A program made the translations under genes and the position numbers. A DNA stretch of 64,000 nt from Gemmatimonadota bacterium (GTDB lineage Bacteria > Gemmatimonadota > Gemmatimonadetes > Palauibacterales > KS3-K002), in assembly GCA_039589995.1 (NCBI GenBank), contig JBDHGH010000005.1, forward strand, positions 2,813 through 66,812. The letters are read 5' to 3'. Position 1 is the first letter of the stretch; the number at the start of each line of letters is the position of its first letter. Under the pieces are notes generated by a model. The model did no database searches, was not told the DNA's origin, and was given only the letters and a program-made list of their open reading frames with translations. Positions 1 through 59,235 of this stretch are shown piece by piece.

Positions 1-380
1 TGGTCTGCTCGGCGGTATCGTTCCCCCCTGAAGAGCAGCCGACAGCTAGGACTAGGGCGGATACGATGATTCGCAAACTCTTAGACATCTTAACTCCACG
101 TGTGGTTAACGTTGCACGGCTCGCTGCCTGCCTGGGCGCGAGCCGGGGCGCGACGGTGGTCGCGTGTGCGGTCGATCGTGGACCGGAGACTACACCCCGC
201 TGCTGGTGACCGCAACTGGCCTGTTGACCGCGCGCTTGGATTTTCGTCGATTGGCTAGCGACGCGAGGGCAGCGAACCGGAGTGCGGATCCGGTGTAGGA
301 AGGACCCTCACTCAGACTTCAGCGCAACGCGGCCATCTGGCTGGCTACTTACAGTCTCGTTCATCTGGAGAATCAAGGTC

Positions 381-2615
381 ATGAGCTTAGCACGACCGAT
401 TACGACCGTCCTTGCAGCGACGCTAGGGTTGTTGGGCGGTACCGCGCCACAGGACGAGGAGGGCTTGAGTTGGCCGCGTGAATTCACGCATGAGGGCTAC
501 CTCGTCGTGGTGTACCAGCCGCAGCTCGAGACGTTCGAGGGTGACAATCTCACGGGGCGAACCGCCGTATCGGTGGTTCCACCGGGCCAAAGTGAGCCGG
601 TGTTCGGAGCCGTGTGGTTCGATGCGATCGTCGAGACCGATCGGGAGGAACGGACGGTAGAGATCGGGGATGTCACCATCCCCAGAGTTCGCTTCCCCGA
701 CGCCAGCGAAGAACAAACGCAGGCGTTGGCGGACGTTCTATCGGAGCAGGCCACAGCCTGGGAGGCGGTCGCGTCGCTGGACCATATCCTGACAAGTCTG
801 GAGATGGTGGAACGAGAGCGTGCGGTCTCGGATGACATTAATACCGAGCCGCCGGATATCCGCGTTACCTACGTGCCGTCCATCCTGGTCACGCTGGATG
901 GCGAGCCGGTACTTCACGACATAGAGAACACAGACCTCCAGGCTGTCGTAAACACGCCCTTTACGATCATCTACTATCCGAGCACGGCGATCTACTATCT
1001 GTATGCGGGACAAGACGCTTGGTTCTACGCCACCGACATGATGGGTTCGTGGGCGGTCACGGACCGAGTCCCCGAGAAAGTGACTTCGCTTGTTCCACCC
1101 GACACGGCACAGGTAGCGGTCGATGAAGCAGACGAGACGGGGCTAGATCTAGATATCAATGACGTCACCGTGGTGGTGGTGACCGAGCCAACGGAGCTGA
1201 TCGTTACAGAGGGGCCACCCGAATACGCCTCGATCGACGGTACCGATCTTCTTTACGTGAGCAATTCGGAGAGCGACGTATTCGTAGAGATAAACTCACA
1301 GCAGTATTTCATCGTTTTGGCCGGGCGATGGTATACCAGCGGGAATTTGGACGGCCCGTGGAGCTTCATTGCGTCGGACTCGATCCCTGCCGATTTCGCC
1401 AAGATCCCTCCAGAGTCGGCGCGCGGTAGCGTGTTGAGTTACGTAGCGGGGACCGATCAGGCGAAGGACGCAGTGCTGGACAACTCGATCCCTCAAACAT
1501 CGGCGATAAGACGCGACGCGACGCTCGAAGTTACCTACGATGGCGATCCCCAGTTCGAGCCCATCGAGGGCACTGAGATGACGTACGCTGTAAACACAGC
1601 CTCGCAAGTCATAGAGGTCGACGGCCGGTATTACGCTTGCGACCAGGCGGTCTGGTACGAATCGGACGGCCCGACCGGGCCGTACACGGTGGCAACCGAA
1701 ATGCCGGACGACATTCAGGACATCCCGCCAGATAACCCGAACTACAACGTCAAGTACGTCTACGTCTACGATTACACACCGGAGGTCGCCTACGTCGGCT
1801 ACACGCCGGGTTACACGGGGAGCTATGTCTACGGTTCTACCGTCGTGTACGGAACGGGCTGGGTCTATCGTCCCTGGATCAGCCCGTTCTTCTTCTATCC
1901 GCGTCCAATGACGTGGGGCTTCCACGTCCGCTTCAACCCGTGGTGGGGCTGGAGTGTTGGGTTCGGATTCCGTTCCGGCCCCTTTCACTTCGGTTTCGCG
2001 ATGGGACCGATGATGTGGCGGCGTCCTATGGGCTGGTGGGGACCGCGCGGCTTCCACCGCGGCTTCAACCGTGGTTTCCACCGCGGCTACGGTGCCGGTT
2101 TTCACGCCGGCTACCGGGCGGGCCAGCGGTCGGCTGCGCGCCAGAACATTTATCGGAACCAGCGCAACGCTTCTCGTAACGTGGATCGGGCCACCGCCCG
2201 CAATCAGATGTCTCAGCGACAGGGCAACCGCGGGGGACAGGCCCGCGACATGTCGCGTACACAGGGTGGCCAGCGCAGCCAGGGTGCGGAGCGACTACAG
2301 CCGTCGCAGGGCCGGAACAACAATCTCTATGCCGACCGCAACGGCGATGTCTACCGTCGGAACTCGGACGGCAGCTGGCAGATGCGCGATAACCAGAACT
2401 GGGGCTCGGCGGACCGATCGGGTACGCAGAACCGCCAGCGGGACGCGAACCGACAGCAGCCGTCGCGGGACCGAGCACAGCCTTCGACTCAGAATCGCAG
2501 CCAGAATCTCAACCGCGAGTACAACTCACGGCAGCGGGGGACGCAGCGGACGCAGAGCTATAATCGGCAGCGCTCGGGTGGTGGCGGGTCCCGTGGTGGA
2601 GGCAGGAGACGTTAA
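381..2615 (+). CDS. Secreted hypothetical protein. Central region rich in aromatic and Gly residues (YVYVYDY, GFHRGFNRGFHRGYGAGFHAGY), followed by a disordered Gln/Asn/Arg/Ser-rich tail of about 240 aa.
   Basis: Long ORF. Start moved to ATG 381 with AAGG 6 nt upstream, which gives a signal-peptide-like N-terminus (MSLARPITTVLAATLGLLGG). The ORF-track start at 282 is a GTG further upstream. No recognisable catalytic motif. Confidence 0.55.
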   Translation: MSLARPITTVLAATLGLLGGTAPQDEEGLSWPREFTHEGYLVVVYQPQLETFEGDNLTGRTAVSVVPPGQSEPVFGAVWFDAIVETDREERTVEIGDVTIPRVRFPDASEEQTQALADVLSEQATAWEAVASLDHILTSLEMVERERAVSDDINTEPPDIRVTYVPSILVTLDGEPVLHDIENTDLQAVVNTPFTIIYYPSTAIYYLYAGQDAWFYATDMMGSWAVTDRVPEKVTSLVPPDTAQVAVDEADETGLDLDINDVTVVVVTEPTELIVTEGPPEYASIDGTDLLYVSNSESDVFVEINSQQYFIVLAGRWYTSGNLDGPWSFIASDSIPADFAKIPPESARGSVLSYVAGTDQAKDAVLDNSIPQTSAIRRDATLEVTYDGDPQFEPIEGTEMTYAVNTASQVIEVDGRYYACDQAVWYESDGPTGPYTVATEMPDDIQDIPPDNPNYNVKYVYVYDYTPEVAYVGYTPGYTGSYVYGSTVVYGTGWVYRPWISPFFFYPRPMTWGFHVRFNPWWGWSVGFGFRSGPFHFGFAMGPMMWRRPMGWWGPRGFHRGFNRGFHRGYGAGFHAGYRAGQRSAARQNIYRNQRNASRNVDRATARNQMSQRQGNRGGQARDMSRTQGGQRSQGAERLQPSQGRNNNLYADRNGDVYRRNSDGSWQMRDNQNWGSADRSGTQNRQRDANRQQPSRDRAQPSTQNRSQNLNREYNSRQRGTQRTQSYNRQRSGGGGSRGGGRRR

Positions 2616-2617
2616 GA

Positions 2618-2832
2618 GGGAGACGAACATCGAACATCGATCAAGGAACATCGAAAGTTGAAGATGGAGACGAACGGCGCGAACAGCTAATAAAGAACAC
2701 CGAATCCGAATATCCAAGGCACAACGTTTTCGCCGTCCGATAGATGTTCGTATTCGATGTTCGATGTTTCCCAGGTTCGTCTCCATCTTCGAACTTCACA
2801 TATCGATGTTGGATGTTCGATGTTCGTCTCCC
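2618..2832. repeat. 215-bp imperfect inverted-repeat element with GGGAGACG...CGTCTCCC termini and many GAACATCG octamers
   Basis: Arms 2618-2676 and 2766-2832 are reverse complements with few mismatches. AT-richer than the flanks. Confidence 0.7.
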
Positions 2833-3636
2833 TAATACCGTCCCCGCCGCCTCTCCTTGGAGGGTAGGATTTCATTGCATGTGGTCCACCAGCCCGTGAC
2901 AATCGTCTCGACAAACTGATCCGGCAGTCCTTCATCTCGCATTTCCTCCGCGAGTGCTTCGTGATCGTACGAGACCGGTACGAATTCGACCTCTAGAGCC
3001 TCGCCTTCCAGCGATAGCATCGTGTACCAGACGTGGGTGTTCCCATCGTTGGCCGGTCGACCGATGGCGCCCACGTTGACGACCAGCCGTTCACCTGGCA
3101 GCTCGCGGCTCCAGTGCAGGCCCGTGTGAGTGCAGAGGATGACATCCGCGTCGAAGTCGTCAAGCAGCTTTTCCAAGAAGTGTGTGGGTGAAGTGGACTC
3201 CCATAGGAACTCGTTCATGCGTCGTGGGCTGACATGGCACAGAAGTGCCCGCCGGTCACCCAGGCGGATGTGCAGATGTTCGGGCAGATCGCCAAGCCAA
3301 GCCCGCCAGGACGAGCTCGTGTTGGTGAGTGTGTAACGGTACGAGATGCGGGCGAAGTGGTTGTCGAGAGGATCGGTGTAGCCGCACTGGCAGTCGTCGA
3401 GGCCGCGGGCGATGGAGTCGTCGTAGTTTCCTCTGATCGTCCGCACATCGTTCTCAACGAGTATAGGGAATACGCGGTCCGGATGCGGGCCGAACGCGCC
3501 GATGTCGCCAAGACAGAACAGTGCTTCCGCACCTCGTCGTCGCGCATCTTCGATTACCGCCCGCAGCGCATGATGATTGGAGTAGACGCCACCAAAGGCG
3601 GCGAGGCGCCTGTACGTGATCGACTCCACGCTCACC
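2832..3636 (-). CDS. Calcineurin-like metallophosphoesterase (YfcE/MJ0936-like)
   Basis: GD...GNYD metallophosphoesterase motifs (LGDIGAFGPHPD, IRGNYDD). GTG start at 3636 overlaps the stop of the upstream radical-SAM gene (GTGA). The 317-aa track ORF from 3785 is probably over-extended. Confidence 0.65.
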
Positions 3637-4582
3637 GTTCCAGGCCGATACCGCTGAAGTTGGAGCAGATGGCGCCGTTCATCCAGCAGGTATAGCAGGC
3701 GTTGTGTTTGAGCTGATAGGGGTGCGCGGCCTCTTCTAGGGTGGCGCCGAGGCGCGCGTCGGCATGGTCGATTAGAATCGGGCAAACAAAGATCCCGCGA
3801 TCGGTGACGATGCGCGCGCTAGAGCAGAGTAGTTGGCTGGTATCGTAGCTCTCCATCATGGCGGACGTAACACGCTCTTCGTCGGAATAGTCGCGAGAGC
3901 GATCCGCCTCTCTTCCAATCTGCAGTGAAGGCAGAATCTTGATTCGAGGACGGTCGTAGCCGATTCGACGGAGGGTGTCGACAAACTGCTGGTAGATCCT
4001 CGCGTCCTCGTGCGGGCACCATACCTGTGCGGCTGTAACGATCGGAAGAAAGCCGTGCTCGACCAGGCGCTTAATTCCCTGCATGGCGCGCTCGAACGTG
4101 CCGGCTCCCCGGATCGGGTCGTTCGTCTCCGCCGAGGGGCCATCGAGGCTGACCCGGAGCTCGAGCGAGAACGTTGAGCCGGCGTCGATCTCGGCCAACC
4201 GACGGACAGTCTTCTCGGGCAGGAGGGTCGCGTTGGTGAGCACGCTGGCCGGGCCAATGGCTAGCGCCCGCTCCAGCATAGCGGGCAGGTCCCTGTTCAT
4301 GAAAGGCTCGCCGCCGGTGAAGTAATACTCCTTGACGCCCCACGCTTTCGACTCGTTCAGGTAAGTGTCGACGGTGTCGAGGTCGAGGAACCAGAAGCTG
4401 TGATTGTCGGGTGCACACGAGATGAAGCAGTGCGTGCAACGCAGATTGCATACGGTGCCGGCGACCTGGAACCAGAGGTAGTCAAGGGCGAGCAGCGGGA
4501 CCTGAGGGGCGGTCTCACTGGATAAGCCCGCCTCAGGGGTTGCTCCAGCGGGCACGGGGCTCAAGTTGTTAGCAGCCATCAT
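3632..4582 (-). CDS. Radical SAM enzyme with a C-terminal Cys-rich twitch/SPASM-like extension
   Basis: CNLRCTHC (CxxxCxxC) cluster, GGEP motif, LDG motif. C-terminal CP...C-x2-C-x6-C cysteine set (NACYTCWMNGAIC). Confidence 0.8.
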   Translation of the reverse strand: MMAANNLSPVPAGATPEAGLSSETAPQVPLLALDYLWFQVAGTVCNLRCTHCFISCAPDNHSFWFLDLDTVDTYLNESKAWGVKEYYFTGGEPFMNRDLPAMLERALAIGPASVLTNATLLPEKTVRRLAEIDAGSTFSLELRVSLDGPSAETNDPIRGAGTFERAMQGIKRLVEHGFLPIVTAAQVWCPHEDARIYQQFVDTLRRIGYDRPRIKILPSLQIGREADRSRDYSDEERVTSAMMESYDTSQLLCSSARIVTDRGIFVCPILIDHADARLGATLEEAAHPYQLKHNACYTCWMNGAICSNFSGIGLER

Positions 4583-47129: not shown

Positions 47130-47136
47130 TCCAATG

Positions 47137-47270
47137 TGTGATCAGTGATCAGTAACCAGTGACTCCGTGGCCCTTCACGCTGGGTTCACGCGAGCACCGG
47201 CGATAGCCATGATCCTTCGAGTTTGAGTTCGGCCTATCAGCGATCCACTGGTTACTGATCACTGATTACA
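47137..47270. repeat. Hairpin-forming repeat module in the gcvPB leader. Partial direct copy at 45572-45631.
   Basis: TGTGATCAGTGATCAGTAACCAGTG (47137-47161) is the reverse complement of CCACTGGTTACTGATCACTGATTACA (47243-47268). The 60-nt block GATCCTTCGAG...CAGCGATCCACTGGTTACTGAT recurs at 45572-45631. Confidence 0.65.
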
Positions 47271-47308
47271 GGTTGCCCATCATGCCAACTGTCAGAGCAC
47301 TAGCGCTG

Positions 47309-50250: not shown

Positions 50251-50382
50251 ATTGGGAGTTGGTAAGTAAACGAGTAATAGAGCAATCGAGACTGCGAGTT
50301 TTGAGTTGGGTCTGTAGCACGCACCCACTTCCAACTCGCAGTCTCGATTGCTCTATTACTCGTTTACTCACCAACTCCCAAT
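50251..50382. repeat. 132-bp palindromic element: 50-bp stems with one mismatch and a 32-nt loop
   Basis: ATTGGGAGTTGGTAAGTAAACGAGTAATAGAGCAATCGAGACTGCGAGTT ... AACTCGCAGTCTCGATTGCTCTATTACTCGTTTACTCACCAACTCCCAAT. Confidence 0.8.
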
Positions 50383-52372: not shown

Positions 52373-52498
52373 GGGAGTAGGTGAGTAAACGAGTAATAGA
52401 GCAATTGAGACTGCGAGTTTTGAGTTTGGGCCTTGCTGGGAGGCCATTCCCAACTCGCAGTCTCTGCTTCTCTGTCACTCGTTTACTCACCTACTCCC
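52373..52498. repeat. Second, diverged copy of the 50251 palindromic element
   Basis: GGGAGTAGGTGAGTAAACGAGTAATAGAGCAATTGAGACTGCGAGTTTTGAGTTTGGG... shares about 45 nt with copy 1. Its right arm is degenerate. Confidence 0.7.
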
Positions 52499-52517: not shown

Positions 52518-53915
52518 TTAACTACCGGGCAGCGTTTCATCTTCCCTGACCCGAGAGGCGATCCCAACGCCAGTAAACCCATAGGCTACGGCAAACAAGA
52601 GGCCCGTGTAGTTGAACACCGCCCAGGGCAGGTAGGACAGCGTGGCGACGCCCAGTGTGGCTGCCATGAACACGCCGGCGGCCGACCACGGGATAAGAGG
52701 GACGACGACGGTGCCGCTATCCTCGAGCGTGCGTGAGAGGTTTTTCGCAGCAAGCTCGCGTTGCCGGTAGGCCGGCGCGAACAGTTCGCCGGGTAGGAGA
52801 ATCGTCAGGTAGCTAGAGCCCGTGATGATCGCCGTGAACACCGTCGATCCGACGGTCGCCGCCACTAGTTGGCCGGTGGTACGCGTGGCTCGGAGCAGGT
52901 GGCTGAGGGCGAGGTCCAGCAGTCCGGCGCGGTTGGCGATTCCGGCGAACGAGAACGCCGCGAAGACGATGAGGGTGACCTCCATCATCGGGCCCATTCC
53001 GCCCCGAGATAGCAGGTTGTCCACCGCCGAGTCTCCGGTGTTCGCGGCGTAGCCCGTCACCATCGCGTCTAGCACATCCGAAAGAGCCTCGCCTTGAACG
53101 ATCACGGCGATCGCGGCCGCCACCGCCGCTGCCAGCAGGATGCCTGGTACCGTGGGCTTCTGTCGTACGGCGAAGTACAGCACCACGGGGAGAGGCAAGA
53201 GCACCCAGGGATTCATGACGAAGGCACCGTCCAGCGTCTCGAGGATCGCCGCGACCCTCTCGGGCGATGCGGCACTGCGGCTGTTCAATCCGACGATCAG
53301 GTAGACGAGAAGGCCTAGCGTCCATGCCGGCAGCGTCGTCCATAGCATGTGACGGATGTGATCGAACAGATTCGATTGAGCGGCCACCGGCGCCAGGTTC
53401 GTCGTGTCCGAGAAAGGCGACAGCTTGTCACCGAAGTAGGCGCCGGCAACAACCGCGCCTGCGGCAGCACCCAAAGGCACGCCGAGGCCTGCGGCCACGC
53501 CCATGAGCGCGATGCCCATCGTTCCCACCGTCCCCCACGACGTACCGGTGAAGAGCGAGATGAGCGAACAGAGTATGCAGGCGGTGACCAGAAAGAACTG
53601 CGGCGAGATGGTGTGCATGCCGAGGCGCACCAGGTACGGGATCGTTCCCGCCGCGATCCACGATGCGATGAGCGCGCCCACGCATACCAGGATCAGAACC
53701 GCCGGCAGAGCCTTGGCGATGCCTTCAATGATCCCGGCCTGCAGTTCCCCCCACGTGTACCCGAGTCGATAGGCGACCAGGCCCGCAATGGCGGCGGCCA
53801 CTATGAGCAGGATCTCGATGCGCAGGCGATAGATGCCGTAGCCCACCCCGAGCAGGATGGCCATCGAGATGAACGGGAGGAACGACTCGAACGTCGTGGG
53901 CTTTCTAGTAGACAT
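52518..53915 (-). CDS. nhaC: Na+/H+ antiporter NhaC family
   Basis: About 12 TM helices. NhaC family N-terminal region. Confidence 0.8.
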   Translation of the reverse strand: MSTRKPTTFESFLPFISMAILLGVGYGIYRLRIEILLIVAAAIAGLVAYRLGYTWGELQAGIIEGIAKALPAVLILVCVGALIASWIAAGTIPYLVRLGMHTISPQFFLVTACILCSLISLFTGTSWGTVGTMGIALMGVAAGLGVPLGAAAGAVVAGAYFGDKLSPFSDTTNLAPVAAQSNLFDHIRHMLWTTLPAWTLGLLVYLIVGLNSRSAASPERVAAILETLDGAFVMNPWVLLPLPVVLYFAVRQKPTVPGILLAAAVAAAIAVIVQGEALSDVLDAMVTGYAANTGDSAVDNLLSRGGMGPMMEVTLIVFAAFSFAGIANRAGLLDLALSHLLRATRTTGQLVAATVGSTVFTAIITGSSYLTILLPGELFAPAYRQRELAAKNLSRTLEDSGTVVVPLIPWSAAGVFMAATLGVATLSYLPWAVFNYTGLLFAVAYGFTGVGIASRVREDETLPGS

Positions 53916-53918
53916 CGA

Positions 53919-55172
53919 TCAGCCGTGTCGGATCCAGCGCACCAGCTCGGGCAGAGTTGGCCGCTTACCGGTCATCAACAGGCCGACCCGGTAAATGCGT
54001 CCGCCGATCCAGGCGACCAGCAGGATCGTGGCGAACTGCAGCGCGAAAATCAGCGGGATTTCCCACAGCTCCACCGAGCCGAGCACATACCGGGCGATGA
54101 AAAGCACCGGGGTGAAGAAGGGGATCCACGATAGCACGGCCGAAGCCGTGCTGGCCGGTGATTCCAATACGACGGGAATGACCAGAATCGGTACGATCAC
54201 CAGCATCGTCACGGGGAATTGGAGCTGCGATGCTTCCTGCTCGGTGCTAGCGATGGCTCCCACCGAAGCGTACATGCCGCCGTACAGGAAGTAGCCGGTG
54301 ATGAAGAGACCGAGGAACAGCACCAGTGTGTCGGGCCCCACCGGGATGTTCTGCAGGAACTCGACGCCCGCGAGCGCTTCAGCGCTGGCGATGTAGACCA
54401 GGGCGAGCGCGATGAAGGACAACCAGACGGCCATCTGGGTGAGTCCAACGGCGCCGACCCCGAGGATCTTCCCGAGCATCAACTGCCACGGGCGTAGGCT
54501 CGAGAGAATGATCTCTACCGTCTTGCTCGATTTCTCCGCGACGGCGGCGCGCAACATCATCGCTCCGTAAAGCAACACCACCATGTAGATAGTGAGTGCC
54601 AGAATGTGGGCAGCGATGACCGACTGCCCCTCTTCGCGAGCCGCGCCCTCTTCGGTGACCCGATACGTCTCGAGATCGACGGACCGCGTGAGCAGGTCGG
54701 CGGCCTCGGGCTCGAGCCCAAGCGCTCGCGCCTGGACCCGTTGCGCGGCCTGAGTGGCGGCGGGCTCCAGCGTCCCGTTCACCAGTGACGGCCCGATGTC
54801 ACGGCCCCAGAACTCGATCTTCCCGCCGTCCAACAGGTTCGAGGGGACGAACATGTAGCCGGAGATCTCCTCTGAGAGGGTCTGCGCCTGAAGTGCTTCC
54901 TTTGCAGCCTCGCTGCCGCCGCTGGGGGGCGGTCTGTAATGAACCCGCTCCTCCACGAACGCCTCGGTTCTCAGCAGCTCGGCGGTGAACTCTCCGGTTT
55001 CGTCGACTACGCTGATCTCGATGACCCGTTCGGCGCCGCGCACGGCCAGCAAGATAGGAAGCGCCATGGCGGCGACGAGCAGGACCGGTGCCAGGATGGT
55101 GGTGACGATGAACCACTTGCTCCGGACCCGGGCGAGGTACTCGCGACGGAGGACCGCGATAAGCTTATTCAC
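53919..55172 (-). CDS. ABC-2 type transporter permease (NatB-like, large extracytoplasmic loop after TM1)
   Basis: TM1, a roughly 150-aa loop, then 5 TM helices. 8-nt overlap with the ATPase gene. Confidence 0.6.
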   Translation of the reverse strand: MNKLIAVLRREYLARVRSKWFIVTTILAPVLLVAAMALPILLAVRGAERVIEISVVDETGEFTAELLRTEAFVEERVHYRPPPSGGSEAAKEALQAQTLSEEISGYMFVPSNLLDGGKIEFWGRDIGPSLVNGTLEPAATQAAQRVQARALGLEPEAADLLTRSVDLETYRVTEEGAAREEGQSVIAAHILALTIYMVVLLYGAMMLRAAVAEKSSKTVEIILSSLRPWQLMLGKILGVGAVGLTQMAVWLSFIALALVYIASAEALAGVEFLQNIPVGPDTLVLFLGLFITGYFLYGGMYASVGAIASTEQEASQLQFPVTMLVIVPILVIPVVLESPASTASAVLSWIPFFTPVLFIARYVLGSVELWEIPLIFALQFATILLVAWIGGRIYRVGLLMTGKRPTLPELVRWIRHG

Positions 55173-56082
55173 GGGCCCTCGACACGAAGATCTCGTGGAG
55201 TGACGGCTCGCTAACCTCGAAGCGGCTGACGGTCGCGCCGGCCCGGACGGCCGCCTCCAACAACTGTTGTGGTTCCACGCCGTCTCTCAGAGAGACGGCC
55301 ACGTGGGTGCCTCGATCCTCGACGCTCGCGACCAGCGATTTGTCTTTGAGCAGTCCGTCCTCGGCGTCCAGGGAGAGGAGGATTTGGCGGTGTCCCTCCA
55401 GCCAGGCTTCCCTCTTGATCTCGGACAGCGTTCCATCGAGCACCTTGTGAGCGTCCTTGATCATCACGACGCGCTCGCAGAGACGCTCGGCCTGGTCCAT
55501 GTTGTGGGTCGAGAGCAGTATGGTGGCGCCGCGGTTCCTTTGCTCGAGGACGATCTTCTTTAGGACGTCGACGTTCAGTGGGTCGAGCCCCGAGAACGGT
55601 TCATCGAGGATGAGGAGATCGGGTTCGTGCAGCACGGTGCCGATGAACTGGGCCTTCTGCTGCATTCCCCGGGACAGCTCTTGGACCTTCTTGTCGGCCC
55701 ATTCTCCCAGGTCCAGGCGTTCGAGCCATTCGGTGGCTCGCTCGCTCGCCACCTTTCGCCGCATCCCCTTCAGCTCGCCTAGAAACACGAGCAGTTCCAA
55801 CACCTTCATCTTGGGATAGAGTCCGCGTTCTTCGGGCAAATACCCCACGCGGTCGCGGGTCTCGGGGGTCAGCGTTCCTCCCAGTACCGCGACCGCTCCG
55901 CGATCGGCTCCAATGATGTCGAGGATAATTCTTATCGTGGTGGTCTTGCCGGCCCCGTTTGGCCCGAGTAGCCCGCAGATCGTCGCGCGCGATACCTGAA
56001 GGTCGAGATCCTCCACCGCGACTTTCTCGCCGTAGGCTTTGTAGATGCCGTCGAGCCTGATGGCTGGGTTGTTTCTGTCCAC
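55165..56082 (-). CDS. ABC transporter ATP-binding protein (NatA-like, with a C-terminal accessory domain)
   Basis: Walker A GPNGAGKTT, signature LSRGMQQK, Walker B LILDEP. Confidence 0.85.
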   Translation of the reverse strand: MDRNNPAIRLDGIYKAYGEKVAVEDLDLQVSRATICGLLGPNGAGKTTTIRIILDIIGADRGAVAVLGGTLTPETRDRVGYLPEERGLYPKMKVLELLVFLGELKGMRRKVASERATEWLERLDLGEWADKKVQELSRGMQQKAQFIGTVLHEPDLLILDEPFSGLDPLNVDVLKKIVLEQRNRGATILLSTHNMDQAERLCERVVMIKDAHKVLDGTLSEIKREAWLEGHRQILLSLDAEDGLLKDKSLVASVEDRGTHVAVSLRDGVEPQQLLEAAVRAGATVSRFEVSEPSLHEIFVSRARE

Positions 56083-56133
56083 TGCGGTGCGATGCTACCT
56101 CTCCTGTAACCTCCCTGCAACCCCCTCTTCTCT

Positions 56134-56269
56134 TACTCCTACTCCTAATCGTACTCGTACTCGTACTCGTACTCGACTCCAAAGGTCTGGAAGGATTGGG
56201 ATTGCGAGTAGGAGTACGATTAGGATTAGGATTACGATTACGATTACGATTACGATTAGGAGTAGGAAG
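56134..56269. repeat. About 135-bp array of degenerate hexamers (TACTCC/TACTCG/TAATCG ; GATTAG/GATTAC) with overall dyad symmetry
   Basis: (TACTCG)x4 and (GATTAC)x4 perfect tandem runs flanked by variant hexamers. Lies in the divergent promoter between the ABC ATPase gene and nhaP. Confidence 0.75.
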
Positions 56270-56311
56270 CACAGGATACCAATCCGGGGCTCACTGCACT
56301 AGCTTGCGCCC

Positions 56312-57913
56312 ATGCACGAGACGGCTCTGATAGTGGAGTTGCTTGTTGTCGCGATACTCGTTGCGATCGTAGTGAAGTACGTCCGCCTGCCCTACACGAT
56401 CGCCCTCGTCTTCGCCGGAGTTGGGGTCGGGTTCCTGCCGGTGGTCCCCGCCTTCCCCGTCGCTCCCTCGTTGTGGCTGCTGCTATTCCTGCCGCCGCTG
56501 CTTTTCGAGGGCACGATCAACATGGATCTCGAGCTGCTCAAGCGTTATGCGACGCCAGTCGGTCTGCTCGCCTTCTTGGGCACTTTGGTCTCGGTCGTAC
56601 TACTGGCGACAATCTTCCACTACCTGCTTGGGCTTCCCGTCGTCCTGGCCACTCGGTTGGGCGTCATGCTCAGCCCCACCGACCCAGTCTCGGTGCTGGC
56701 GCTGTTCAAGGAGTACGGAGTAGCGCGCGGCCTCCAGACCATCGTCGAAGGCGAGTCGGTCTTCAACGATGGCGTGGCCGTCGTGCTGTACATCATCGTG
56801 CTGCACGTGATCGGCGGCGAGTCAGTGACGGTGGTGGAGGGGATCGTCGAGTTCTTCAAGGTCGTGGCCGGCGGCGCGCTGGTCGGCGCGATCCTCGGCT
56901 ATCTGACCCATCGGCTCTACTCCCAGATCGACGATCACCTCATCGAAGTCGGGCTTTCGCTGGCCCTGGCCTACGGATCTTACCTGGTCGCCGAGCGTTT
57001 GGAAGTCTCGGGTGTGATCGCGGTGGTGGTGGCCGGGCTCATCATCGGGAACTACGGCCGCATCTTCTCCATGAGCCCCAGCACGCGATTGAGCCTGACT
57101 CACTTCTGGGAGGTCGGCGCGTTCCTCATCAATGGGCTGCTGTTCCTGTTGATCGGGCTCACGGTCGAGCGCGGCGAGCTGTTCGGCTACGCCGGCCAGA
57201 TCAGCCTCGTCTTCGTCGCGATGATCGTCGTGCGGTCGGTCGTCGTCTACGGAACGCTGGGCGCGCACCAGGGCGCATCGCGCAGGTCGCTGCCCGCCGG
57301 CTGGGTGCATGTCGTCAATTGGGCCGGTGTTCGCGGCAGCATCCCCGTCGCCCTGGCGTTGGGACTGCCGGCAACTGTCCCCGAGGTCGGCCGCCTTAGG
57401 GCGATCACTCTGGGTGCCGTGTTCCTGTCGCTGGTCGTCCAGGGGATGACCATCAAGCCGCTACTGGAGAAGCTGGGTTTGGTCCGGCGCTCCGAGGAGC
57501 AGAAAGCCTTCGAGCGGGCCCAAGGCGAAGCGATCGCGGCCAACGCGGCGCTGAACGAGTTGGAGGGTCTGCATCGAAGCGGCGAGATACCCGATGTCCT
57601 CTATAGAAAGCTGGTGGACTACTTCGGCGGCATTCGAACCCGGACGACCGGAGAGCTGGCCCGAATGACCGAGGATGATGGCGCCGTTCGGCGTCGGCAC
57701 CTGGCTCGAGTCAGCACGCAACTGTTCGCCGCGGAGCGGGTAGCACTAGACCAGGCCCTGCGGCGTGGGCTGTTGGGTGAAGAAGTGTGGCGCGAACTCA
57801 AGGAAGAAGTGGACGCGCTGCTGGTGGGCGGCGAAGAGGAAGGTTGGGAGCATCTTTGGCACGAGGAACACGTCGAGCTCGACGATGAAGAACTAGCGCA
57901 GGACGACTCCTAG
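56312..57913 (+). CDS. Na+/H+ exchanger, CPA1 (NhaP-type) with a C-terminal cytoplasmic regulatory domain
   Basis: 12-13 TM helices with CPA1 motifs. Roughly 130-aa hydrophilic tail. Confidence 0.85.
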   Translation: MHETALIVELLVVAILVAIVVKYVRLPYTIALVFAGVGVGFLPVVPAFPVAPSLWLLLFLPPLLFEGTINMDLELLKRYATPVGLLAFLGTLVSVVLLATIFHYLLGLPVVLATRLGVMLSPTDPVSVLALFKEYGVARGLQTIVEGESVFNDGVAVVLYIIVLHVIGGESVTVVEGIVEFFKVVAGGALVGAILGYLTHRLYSQIDDHLIEVGLSLALAYGSYLVAERLEVSGVIAVVVAGLIIGNYGRIFSMSPSTRLSLTHFWEVGAFLINGLLFLLIGLTVERGELFGYAGQISLVFVAMIVVRSVVVYGTLGAHQGASRRSLPAGWVHVVNWAGVRGSIPVALALGLPATVPEVGRLRAITLGAVFLSLVVQGMTIKPLLEKLGLVRRSEEQKAFERAQGEAIAANAALNELEGLHRSGEIPDVLYRKLVDYFGGIRTRTTGELARMTEDDGAVRRRHLARVSTQLFAAERVALDQALRRGLLGEEVWRELKEEVDALLVGGEEEGWEHLWHEEHVELDDEELAQDDS

Positions 57914-57941
57914 ACTTGAGCGACGTTTGGAGGGGGTGCAC

Positions 57942-58223
57942 ATGGCGGAGAAACGTAAGCGACTCATTTGGTGGCTACTGCCGCGGCTGCTGATATTCGC
58001 CGCCGGCGTGGCGGTGGGATACTACGCTCGCACCAACGAGTTGGACCGGCTGGAGGAGGTTTACGAACAGACGGTCGCCGAGTTTCAGCAGTTCAAAGAG
58101 AACACCGAAGAGATGATCGAGCGGGGCCGCGCTGCGGGTGAGAGCCTGAAGTCGGGCGCCGAGGCGGCGGTAGACAGCACGAAAGCTGCCGTAGAGTCGA
58201 TCAAAGGCGAAGGCAACGACTAG
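57942..58223 (+). CDS. Small N-terminally membrane-anchored coiled-coil protein (YtxH-like?)
   Basis: ATG at 57942 with a GGAGGGGG RBS. One TM helix, then a helical Glu/Ala-rich region. Confidence 0.4.
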   Translation: MAEKRKRLIWWLLPRLLIFAAGVAVGYYARTNELDRLEEVYEQTVAEFQQFKENTEEMIERGRAAGESLKSGAEAAVDSTKAAVESIKGEGND

Positions 58224-58233
58224 ACGCTGTGCG

Positions 58234-59235
58234 CTAACCGAATACTATGACGCTCAGCATGATGACGAGTAGCGTCAGCAACACGTAGTTGAACCCGCGA
58301 CTGCCTCGAGCCGCGACCTTGGGCCGACCGGGCATCACGGTCGGTGCGTCGGGAACCGTACCACGAACCGGCATCACGTCGCCGGGTTCGATGATCTCCT
58401 CAGCCGTCTCAGGCCTCCGCAAGAACGCCAACTCGACTTTCCCGATCTGTATGACGTCGCCCACACCCAGCGTGTGGTTTCCGTGCACCTTCTTGCCGTT
58501 CACCTTGGTATCCGCGCGGCCGACCTCGCGGAGCACGTACTTGCCGGCGGTGTAGGTAATTTCGGCGTGCAGGCGCGAGACGGACTGATCGGGGATGATC
58601 AGGTCGCAGTGCTTCTCGCGGCCGATCCGAAAACCCGCCCCGTCGATGGCGTAGGCCTGACCGTCGTCCATTCTGCGCAGCACGGCAACGATCTTCCTTT
58701 GCACGACCGGTGGCGTCATCCGCGTCAACATCTCAGGCGACACCGCGCCGGTCCCCGCGGCCGACTCCACGTGGCCGCCGGCGACCGCGGCAGGAGCTTG
58801 GCGTCTACCCGCCCGAGCCAGCACTCGTTCTGTGGGCTCGCTGGCGTCGTCGATGAACGTCAGTGGAAACACCAACGTCGAATCCTGAATCGAGATTTGG
58901 TCGCTGCTGAACAACGGAACCGGCTCCTTGCTCAGCCGTTGACCGTTGATGACGATTTCGCAGTTATCACCCGCCGACCAGGCGAATGCGCCGAGGGTCT
59001 CGATGCTGATCCCCAAAACGCAGCCTGGGGGCAAATCGGGTAGACGAACGGTCGACTGCTCGCTGGGGCCGATCAGGTTCTCGCCGCTGCGGAGTGGATA
59101 TAGCTGCTGTCTGAATTCGATGGACGGCACGGCTCCGTATCTCCTTGCCAGTCTGCCAGCGGGGGATTCGCCTGGCCGGGGCCATTGGAGGCCAGTGTAC
59201 GCCCAAGCTGGGGCGTACCTATGAAAGAAATGCAA
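58234..59235 (-). CDS. FHA-domain protein with a C-terminal TM tail anchor (probably two FHA-like modules)
   Basis: FRIGREKHCDLIIPDQSVSRLHAEI...NGKKV FHA core. C-terminal hydrophobic YVLLTLLVIMLSVIVFG. Confidence 0.65.
   Translation of the reverse strand: MHFFHRYAPAWAYTGLQWPRPGESPAGRLARRYGAVPSIEFRQQLYPLRSGENLIGPSEQSTVRLPDLPPGCVLGISIETLGAFAWSAGDNCEIVINGQRLSKEPVPLFSSDQISIQDSTLVFPLTFIDDASEPTERVLARAGRRQAPAAVAGGHVESAAGTGAVSPEMLTRMTPPVVQRKIVAVLRRMDDGQAYAIDGAGFRIGREKHCDLIIPDQSVSRLHAEITYTAGKYVLREVGRADTKVNGKKVHGNHTLGVGDVIQIGKVELAFLRRPETAEEIIEPGDVMPVRGTVPDAPTVMPGRPKVAARGSRGFNYVLLTLLVIMLSVIVFG

Follow-up and report, generated by a model that had tools for sequence, protein, structure and literature searches.

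What do two facing arrays of hexanucleotides do in the space between two divergently oriented sodium-transport gene sets? They might switch expression by slippage, fold into a hairpin, bind a protein, or have no specific function. The window (the whole 64,000-nucleotide stretch of DNA analysed) comes from a member of the Gemmatimonadota, as its named homologues also indicate; the phylum is abundant in soils and marine sediments. To our knowledge, it is almost untouched genetically, and we know of nothing on its regulation of ion homeostasis. A gap of 229 bp, inside which the arrays lie, separates an operon on the minus strand from nhaP on the plus strand (Table 1). The gene names used in the original prediction hold in part. 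The NhaC and the CPA1/NhaP-type antiporters score above the NCBIfam equivalog cut-offs, whereas 'natA' matches only a generic DrrA-type ABC ATPase beside an ABC-2 permease, and we infer its name solely from this pairing. An exact-protein look-up gave no record for the NhaP of the window. The reading preferred here, tentative at a probability of about 0.38, is that the arrays are an iterated DNA-level binding platform (an operator or upstream element) of putative function that evolves by slippage.

Table 1. Positions of the features discussed. Positions are those of the window unless a locus is named.
Feature	Position	Strand	Description
Operon of three genes	52518..56082	-	ABC ATPase 'natA', ABC-2 permease, NhaC
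DrrA-type ABC ATPase ('natA')	55165-56082	-	operon gene nearest the arrays
ABC-2 permease	53919-55172	-	operon gene after 'natA'
NhaC Na+/H+ antiporter	52518-53915	-	
natA promoter, predicted	56092..56120	-	-35 TTGCAG 56115-56120, 17-nt spacer, -10 TAGCAT 56092-56097
natA-proximal left arm	56134..56175	+	7 TAVTCS hexamers: TACTCC from 56134 and 56140, TAATCG from 56146, (TACTCG)x4 56152-56175
Centre between the arms	56176..56192	.	17 bp, ACTCCAAAGGTCTGGAA; non-repetitive, differs between lineages
nhaP-proximal right arm	56193..56269	-	12 inverted units (56193-56264), TAVTCS on - strand (SGABTA on +): GGATTG x2 (56193-56204), CGAGTA, GGAGTA, CGATTA, GGATTA x2, (CGATTA)x4 (56235-56258), GGAGTA (56259-56264); then partial unit GGAAG (56265-56269)
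nhaP promoter, predicted	56276..56305	+	-10-like TAGCTT 56300-56305, 6 nt ahead of the ATG at 56312
CPA1-family Na+/H+ antiporter, NhaP type	56312..57913	+	533 aa
Small conserved ORF	57942-58223		~93 aa, downstream of nhaP
Inverted heptamer array	2605-2845		CGAACAT x4.6 (2624-2655) facing GATGTTC / TCGATGT runs (2743-2826); arms 96 nt, 72% complementary
Inverted heptamer array	47132-47275		GTGATCA x3.6, inverted partner 84 nt off; arms 30 nt, 90% complementary
Palindromic repeat of ~125 bp, two copies	50251-50382; 52373-52498		arms of 59 nt (92%) and 47 nt (87%)
Arrays downstream of nhaC, other Gemmatimonadota	L007 166-195, 320-350; L009 283-350; L011 328-356; L018 318-350; L023 186-216; L052 1741-1777; L035 1450-1650		
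Arrays of distant NhaP homologues	L079 3840-3951; L068 3920-3952; L074 2168-2197		TTGAGGA / TCTCAAT, AACYAGA, TTTTGGA

Re-reading of the sequence agrees exactly with the hexamer composition originally given for 56134-56269. TRF also returned two period-6 arrays, one of 8.5 copies at 56130-56179 and one of 12.7 copies at 56192-56267. The second half had been described as roughly the reverse complement of the first, and the inverted-repeat arms are indeed 89% complementary when 56137-56174 is paired with 56230-56267 and 82% complementary when 56131-56174 is paired with 56224-56267, with a range of 76-89% by register. The GC content of the array is 44%, compared with 61% for the window. A search for TAMTCSx3 with up to two mismatches gave 16 matches in the window, all within the arrays, against 0.04 expected from shuffles; a search for further TAMTCS hexamer arrays had been proposed originally, and over the window it finds none elsewhere. 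Neither CcrM (GANTC) nor Dam sites occur within the units. The open reading frames that run over the arrays are artefacts, as had been claimed. A coding or leader-peptide role was rejected on the stops present in all six frames of five orthologous spacers (L136, L002, L003, L035 and L022) and on the unit of L022, which has a period of 7 nt.

Comparisons of orthologous loci show conserved promoter-like motifs on both sides of the arrays. On the natA side, TTGCnn, 17-19 nt, TAG[C/G]AT, 8-9 nt and a start codon follow one another in 31 of 32 loci, with TAGCAT 9 nt ahead of the GTG start at 56082 in the window; the longer form of this -10 motif is TAG[C/G]ATCGC, followed by 5-6 nt to the start codon. 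On the nhaP side, TAnnnT is found 6-12 nt ahead of the start in 29 of 31 loci, and the alignment shows a conserved ATACCA block (56276-56281) 18 nt upstream of the -10-like TAGCTT. A scan for E. coli-type sigma-70 promoters found none at 9/12 matches, the natA motif lying below that consensus threshold, and the promoter assignment thus rests on cross-species conservation. Apart from these two motif sets, the alignment contains no promoter-like conserved block outside the arrays. A candidate internal promoter (TTGCGA at 56201-56206, 19 nt, TAGGAT) was rejected because inspection of the sequences showed that it is not conserved in L136 or L002. No Shine-Dalgarno sequence lies at a usable distance from natA or nhaP; the small ORF after nhaP has one. 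The -10-like motifs adjoin both start codons, suggesting that both mRNAs are probably leaderless, and the locus probably comprises two back-to-back promoters with leaderless or near-leaderless mRNAs.

The distance from the natA -35 box to the nhaP start is 41-67 bp in compact loci, in which the two -35 boxes are merely ~4 bp apart, versus 153-225 bp in array-bearing loci. The arrays start 9-19 bp past the natA -35 box and stop ~35-41 bp short of the nhaP -10 motif. This conserved geometry places the arrays upstream of both predicted core promoters and is consistent with the divergent-promoter location proposed for them, between two conserved motif sets. As the arrays fill the space between the -35 boxes, they are probably not transcribed.

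The small conserved ORF downstream of nhaP is preceded by its own GGAGG and encodes a protein in which an N-terminal membrane helix is joined to a helical tail rich in charge. It has no Pfam match and is found in L001-L003 as well as in array-free loci, for example L165. It was considered as a regulator and rejected, being a membrane-anchored helical protein and not a DNA binder. A regulator gene was sought among the neighbours and none was found; these encode transporters, an FHA protein, a small membrane protein, pilin-like proteins, an MscS-like channel, EamA and glycine-cleavage proteins.

The distribution of the arrays was analysed in orthologous loci gathered in three ways: by protein search, from one genome per species and from metagenome contigs. 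Most of these orthologues have a compact natA-nhaP gap without repeats. Mirror-image hexamer arrays occur in the clade nearest the window (L001, L136, L168, L169, L002, L003/L084, L014/L164 and L086), where sequences and counts vary widely, with 5-15 units per arm and often unequal arms (15 vs. 7 units in L002, 7 vs. 12 in the window). Both arms are present in opposed orientation in all array-bearing loci. Outside this main clade, the arms of L035 are flipped (GAnTA first, TAnTC second), and L022/L103 have 7-bp units, GGTAYTC, in which the core is kept. In an NJ tree of NhaP the array clade is monophyletic (window, L001, L136, L002, L003, L014, L086), and L035 and L022 stand apart from it with array-free compact-spacer relatives in between. 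Comparison of L085 (1-184) with its sister L003 (1304-1484) shows that the right arm has changed at ~15 of 40 positions, mostly from A/T to G/C, which erases its TA cores and leaves the spacer length retained. Dispersed intergenic repeats (STRR / TAACTGA type, REP, MITE) have one unit or element at many unrelated loci of a genome; here no second TAVTCS array was detected in the 64-kb window or in ~1.2 Mb of loci, and (TAnTC-N1-2)x3 does not occur outside natA-nhaP spacers in the window and 163 loci (~1.2 Mb; 1.26 Mb with all 167). The arrays are genuine; their kind has been conserved and their make-up remodelled in the course of evolution.

Within the units, conservation is concentrated in a core. 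Among 124 units pooled from 7 lineages, which are not independent samples, position 1 is T in 86% and position 2 is A in 85%, position 4 is T in 98% and position 5 is C in 96%. At position 3 the same 124 units are divided among C (53%), A (26%) and G (19%), and position 6 is C or G in 94%. Because positions 1, 2, 4 and 5 are 85-98% conserved, variation spread by slippage is restricted to positions 3 and 6. The TAnTC core survives both the lengthening of the unit from 6 to 7 bp in L022/L103 and the flip of the arms in L035. Its conservation could partly be owed to common descent. On the sequences compared, the distinctive trait of the arrays is this locus-specific and position-specific conservation of the core. 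As in iterated short-unit operators, the units are contiguous and share a core, and the site lies directly upstream of predicted promoters.

Other short-unit arrays and repeats are present in the window and in related genomes. The array at 2605-2845 lies in low-GC sequence between the convergent ORFs 282-2615 (plus strand) and 2832-3785 (minus strand). The array at 47132-47275 lies between a gene for a metallo-beta-lactamase-fold protein and gcvPB, inside a minus-strand glycine-cleavage operon. Downstream of nhaC in other Gemmatimonadota there are 7- and 8-mer arrays, several of them inverted pairs, with lineage-specific units and a CGAC-like core. Both copies of the palindromic ~125 bp repeat are located at convergent gene ends, the second right after nhaC, and their arms contain GAGTA-like units every 7-8 nt; the other fetched loci contain no copy of this repeat. 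A likeness between the arrays and the copy at 52373 had been pointed out. The 8-mer GGAGTAGG and a GAGTA-like periodic unit are indeed in common, but the meaning of the likeness is unproven. An origin of the arrays from this repeat as a MITE/REP element was rejected, because the repeat reads 5'-GAGTA...TACTC-3' on both strands and the arrays read 5'-TACTC...GAGTA-3', and inversion cannot turn one arm polarity into the other.

Folding of the arrays was considered at the DNA and the RNA level. As a single strand, the 229-nt intergenic sequence gives a better fold than its shuffles do (z = -4.6 for the plus strand and -4.0 for the minus strand), and a long RNA hairpin of -84 kcal/mol is predicted on either strand. 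However, DNA hairpin energies computed with ViennaRNA do not surpass those obtained when the unit order of the arms is shuffled or the arms are built from pooled units (z from -2.3 to +3.2), L035 being the sole exception. In the window TACTC predominates in the left arm and TAATC in the right one, giving a C.T (or G.A) mismatch, not G.U, every 6 bp, and unit-by-unit co-evolution of the arms is absent. Since the energies match those of shuffled arms, the dyad symmetry is a property of two opposed motif arrays and not of a selected hairpin. A structural element that extrudes as a cruciform or slipped structure under negative supercoiling between the divergent promoters, acting as a sink, an insulator or a salt- or supercoiling-sensitive switch, would account for the dyad symmetry in every array-bearing locus, the position exactly between the promoters, the AT-richness and the single-strand fold scores. 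It is nonetheless improbable. Cruciforms form from highly complementary arms around a very short centre, whereas the arms here are imperfect (76-89%), often unequal in unit number and separated by a non-complementary centre of 17-55 nt; a hairpin energy better than that of shuffled or pooled-unit arms is seen in L035 only, and the arms thus show no maintenance of complementarity in evolution. The cruciform or long hairpin originally suggested is thus possible on paper but disfavoured. Cruciform-forming inverted repeats in promoters (reviewed in PMC9180970) have the same dyad symmetry; the arrays differ from them by imperfect arms, a long centre and pairing that bears no mark of selection. A transcribed hairpin in a 5' UTR, processed by RNase III or responding as RNA to ionic strength, is a similarly poor prospect. 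One arm is rich in GGA and AGGAG-like motifs, the predicted fold is stable on either strand, and there is a precedent in H. influenzae hmw1A, in which a simple-sequence repeat in the 5' UTR is one of two pairing arms and the level of expression is set through processing by RNase III (PMC12721329). Yet the predicted transcription starts lie at or beside the start codons, downstream of the arrays, with no conserved promoter-like block outside the arrays to supply another start. In addition, the mismatches would be C.U or G.A and not wobble pairs, and the flipped arms of L035 would yield another RNA. An Rfam scan of 54000-58500 at E <= 10 gave no true match, Na+/Li+ riboswitch classes included, and only two chance-level ones (sR32 and NEAT1_2), both below the gathering score. 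The (ATCTTTC)n repeats in the promoters and 5' UTRs of hmw1A and hmw2A are likewise short-unit arrays upstream of a gene that form one arm of a long hairpin, and their copy number grades expression (PMC12721329, PMC8262952). They differ in being transcribed, one-sided and highly mutable in populations, whereas the arrays here are two mirror arrays that are apparently untranscribed and stable at 99.5% identity.

Pairs of related loci show the tempo of change. Slipped-strand length variation of the units does occur, as had been suggested: the left arm has 11, 9 and 7 units in L164, L014 and L086. The first two are 98.6% identical and differ there by two separate 6-nt (one-unit) indels with an identical right arm, and L086 is 94% identical to L014. 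L168 and L169 (95.9%) differ in both arms, and in L136, at 86% identity to the window, the arrays are essentially rebuilt. In contrast, two independent pairs at 99.5% identity have no indel, namely L022 with L103 and the window with L001 (over 3188 nt, where one of 16 substitutions falls inside a unit, CGATTA to GGATTA). The proposed comparison of repeat number across strains therefore finds length differences at 98.6% and below but none in the two closest pairs. Stability of the arrays across 0.5% divergence makes them a poor fit to a contingency locus, in which high-frequency slippage of the hexamers would switch or grade Na+ transporter expression within populations. The unit-wise indels between close relatives are of the kind that such a locus would produce. 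However, about two unit indels per 0.019 substitutions per site were found over three close pairs, a rate that, under assumed mutation rates and general figures for contingency loci, would lie orders of magnitude below that of known ones. Contingency loci have a long perfect tract, placed in an ORF, in the -35/-10 gap or in a 5' UTR, whereas no perfect run exceeds 4 units in the window or 5 in L086, where the run is longest, and the arrays lie in none of these positions relative to the predicted promoters. The bacteria live freely in the sea or in sediments, and what would be switched is a housekeeping locus for ion homeostasis. Phase variation of Na+ transporter expression, the function first suggested, is thus not supported in view of the absence of indels at 99.5% and the position upstream of the predicted -35 boxes, and is very improbable. 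A somewhat unlikely account is that the arrays are a neutral or near-neutral by-product, one of many slippage-prone inverted arrays in Gemmatimonadota intergenic DNA without specific function. Such an array would be tolerated because the space between the -35 boxes is unconstrained. The other inverted arrays of the window, and the 7- and 8-mer arrays that other lineages have at the orthologous site after nhaC, are made of unrelated units, so that a general process may generate this architecture. The array-free state of most orthologues, the decay in L085 and the free drift of unit counts also agree with neutrality. Against it stand the concentration of variation at positions 3 and 6 with T4 and C5 96-98% invariant, the recurrence of one core in three phylogenetically separated groups, with 7-bp and flipped versions included, the retention of a 110-180 bp insert through ~15-18% nucleotide divergence despite the bacterial deletion bias, and the invariable retention of both arms.

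An iterated operator for a regulator had also been among the suggested functions, and it is the reading best supported by the conserved core and by the position upstream of both predicted promoters. In such an operator, the two facing T-A-n-T-C-S arrays would constitute a non-coding element that occupies all the space between the two -35 boxes. Each unit would offer its 5-bp core to a protein, which would face both promoters symmetrically, one driving the ABC-transporter/NhaC operon and the other the CPA1 Na+/H+ antiporter, and the sodium-export genes of the two sides would be coupled. Over evolutionary time, and not per generation, replication slippage would alter the number of units and their variants. 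The operator reading is favoured by the apparent confinement of the arrays to natA-nhaP spacers, the keeping of the TAnTC core where nearly all else changes, the NJ tree, which suggests a main clade and two separate lineages with arrays, the mirror arrangement of two ever-present arms at the distances given above from the predicted promoters, the promoter geometry, and the omega/ParB precedent described below. No more than the shared motif is needed to account for the stability of the hairpin. On the other hand, there is no cognate DNA-binding protein among the neighbours, most orthologues manage without arrays, and the right arm of L085 has decayed. The counts are loose (5-15 per arm) and the arms unequal, a shift from a 6-bp to a 7-bp period would be awkward for a cooperative protein lattice, and the same genomes have other inverted short-unit arrays at unrelated intergenic sites. 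We infer both the protein binding and any salt link. A more specific and distinctly unlikely version is a bidirectional operator of an undescribed type, in which a protein would polymerise on the mirror TAnTC arrays and jointly control two leaderless Na+-export promoters, perhaps with salt-sensitive affinity, slippage serving as an evolutionary set-point dial and the idiom being general in Gemmatimonadota intergenic DNA.

Iterated short-unit operators are known as a class, which includes the omega heptads, the Fur hexamers and the MetJ metboxes; their contiguous units measure 6-8 bp, and a cognate protein takes one unit per protomer or dimer. The arrays fit no named family. Escolar, Perez-Martin and de Lorenzo reportedly read the Fur box as arrays of GATAAT hexamers. 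The likeness lies in an operator of at least three adjacent 6-bp units, direct and inverted, along which the repressor extends; here, however, the core is GAnTA + S and not GATAAT, the units are many more (7 + 12), and neither a Fur-family protein nor a link to metals is in evidence. The omega/ParB protein of pSM19035, a ribbon-helix-helix (RHH) protein, binds contiguous 7-bp units in mixed orientation (PMC9499535). The omega heptads of this and other inc18 plasmids resemble the arrays in being contiguous short non-palindromic units, direct and inverted, in promoter regions, and they occur in runs of about 7-10, function requiring a contiguous run and not a single site (PMC9499535). In comparison with them, the unit here is 6 bp (7 bp in one lineage), it forms two opposed blocks around a centre with far more variable unit counts, and the site is a chromosomal Gemmatimonadota locus between transporter promoters, among whose neighbours no RHH or other cognate protein was found.

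Either outcome would give the locus a use, as it is a compact cis-element whose symmetric arrays keep a 5-bp core and sit between two predicted promoters, and natural 'mutants' of it exist in compact, flipped, 7-bp and decayed forms. If a protein reads the units, they would define an operator architecture that is new and would open a way to a regulator in a clade of uncultured marine Gemmatimonadota. If the arrays are neutral, they would show cleanly how slippage builds and remodels inverted microsatellites in the promoters of bacteria, and would warn against calling such arrays phase-variation switches.

Short-unit arrays of other kinds were seen near more remote members of the family. The TAACTGA repeats of Beggiatoaceae, Cyanobacteria and Bacteroidetes occur at ~100 or more loci, mostly as direct repeats a few nt before start codons (PMC4679880). 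These and the cyanobacterial STRR share with the TAVTCS arrays an intergenic-only location of short units and a role that is unknown or proposed to be regulatory (PMC4679880). The TAVTCS arrays differ in being found at one orthologous locus only among the fetched loci, as inverted pairs at least ~45 bp upstream of the starts. Heptamer arrays also stand a few nt ahead of the start codons of distant NhaP homologues from other phyla (~40% identity; Table 1), and the genomes of L079, L068 and L074 contain several heptamer arrays per 9 kb, which resemble the TAACTGA-type repeats of Beggiatoaceae (PMC4679880). In the orthologue L019 (2560-2890), natA is not beside nhaP, and the sequence upstream of nhaP instead holds a long inverted repeat in which CGACG / TCGAA units abound.
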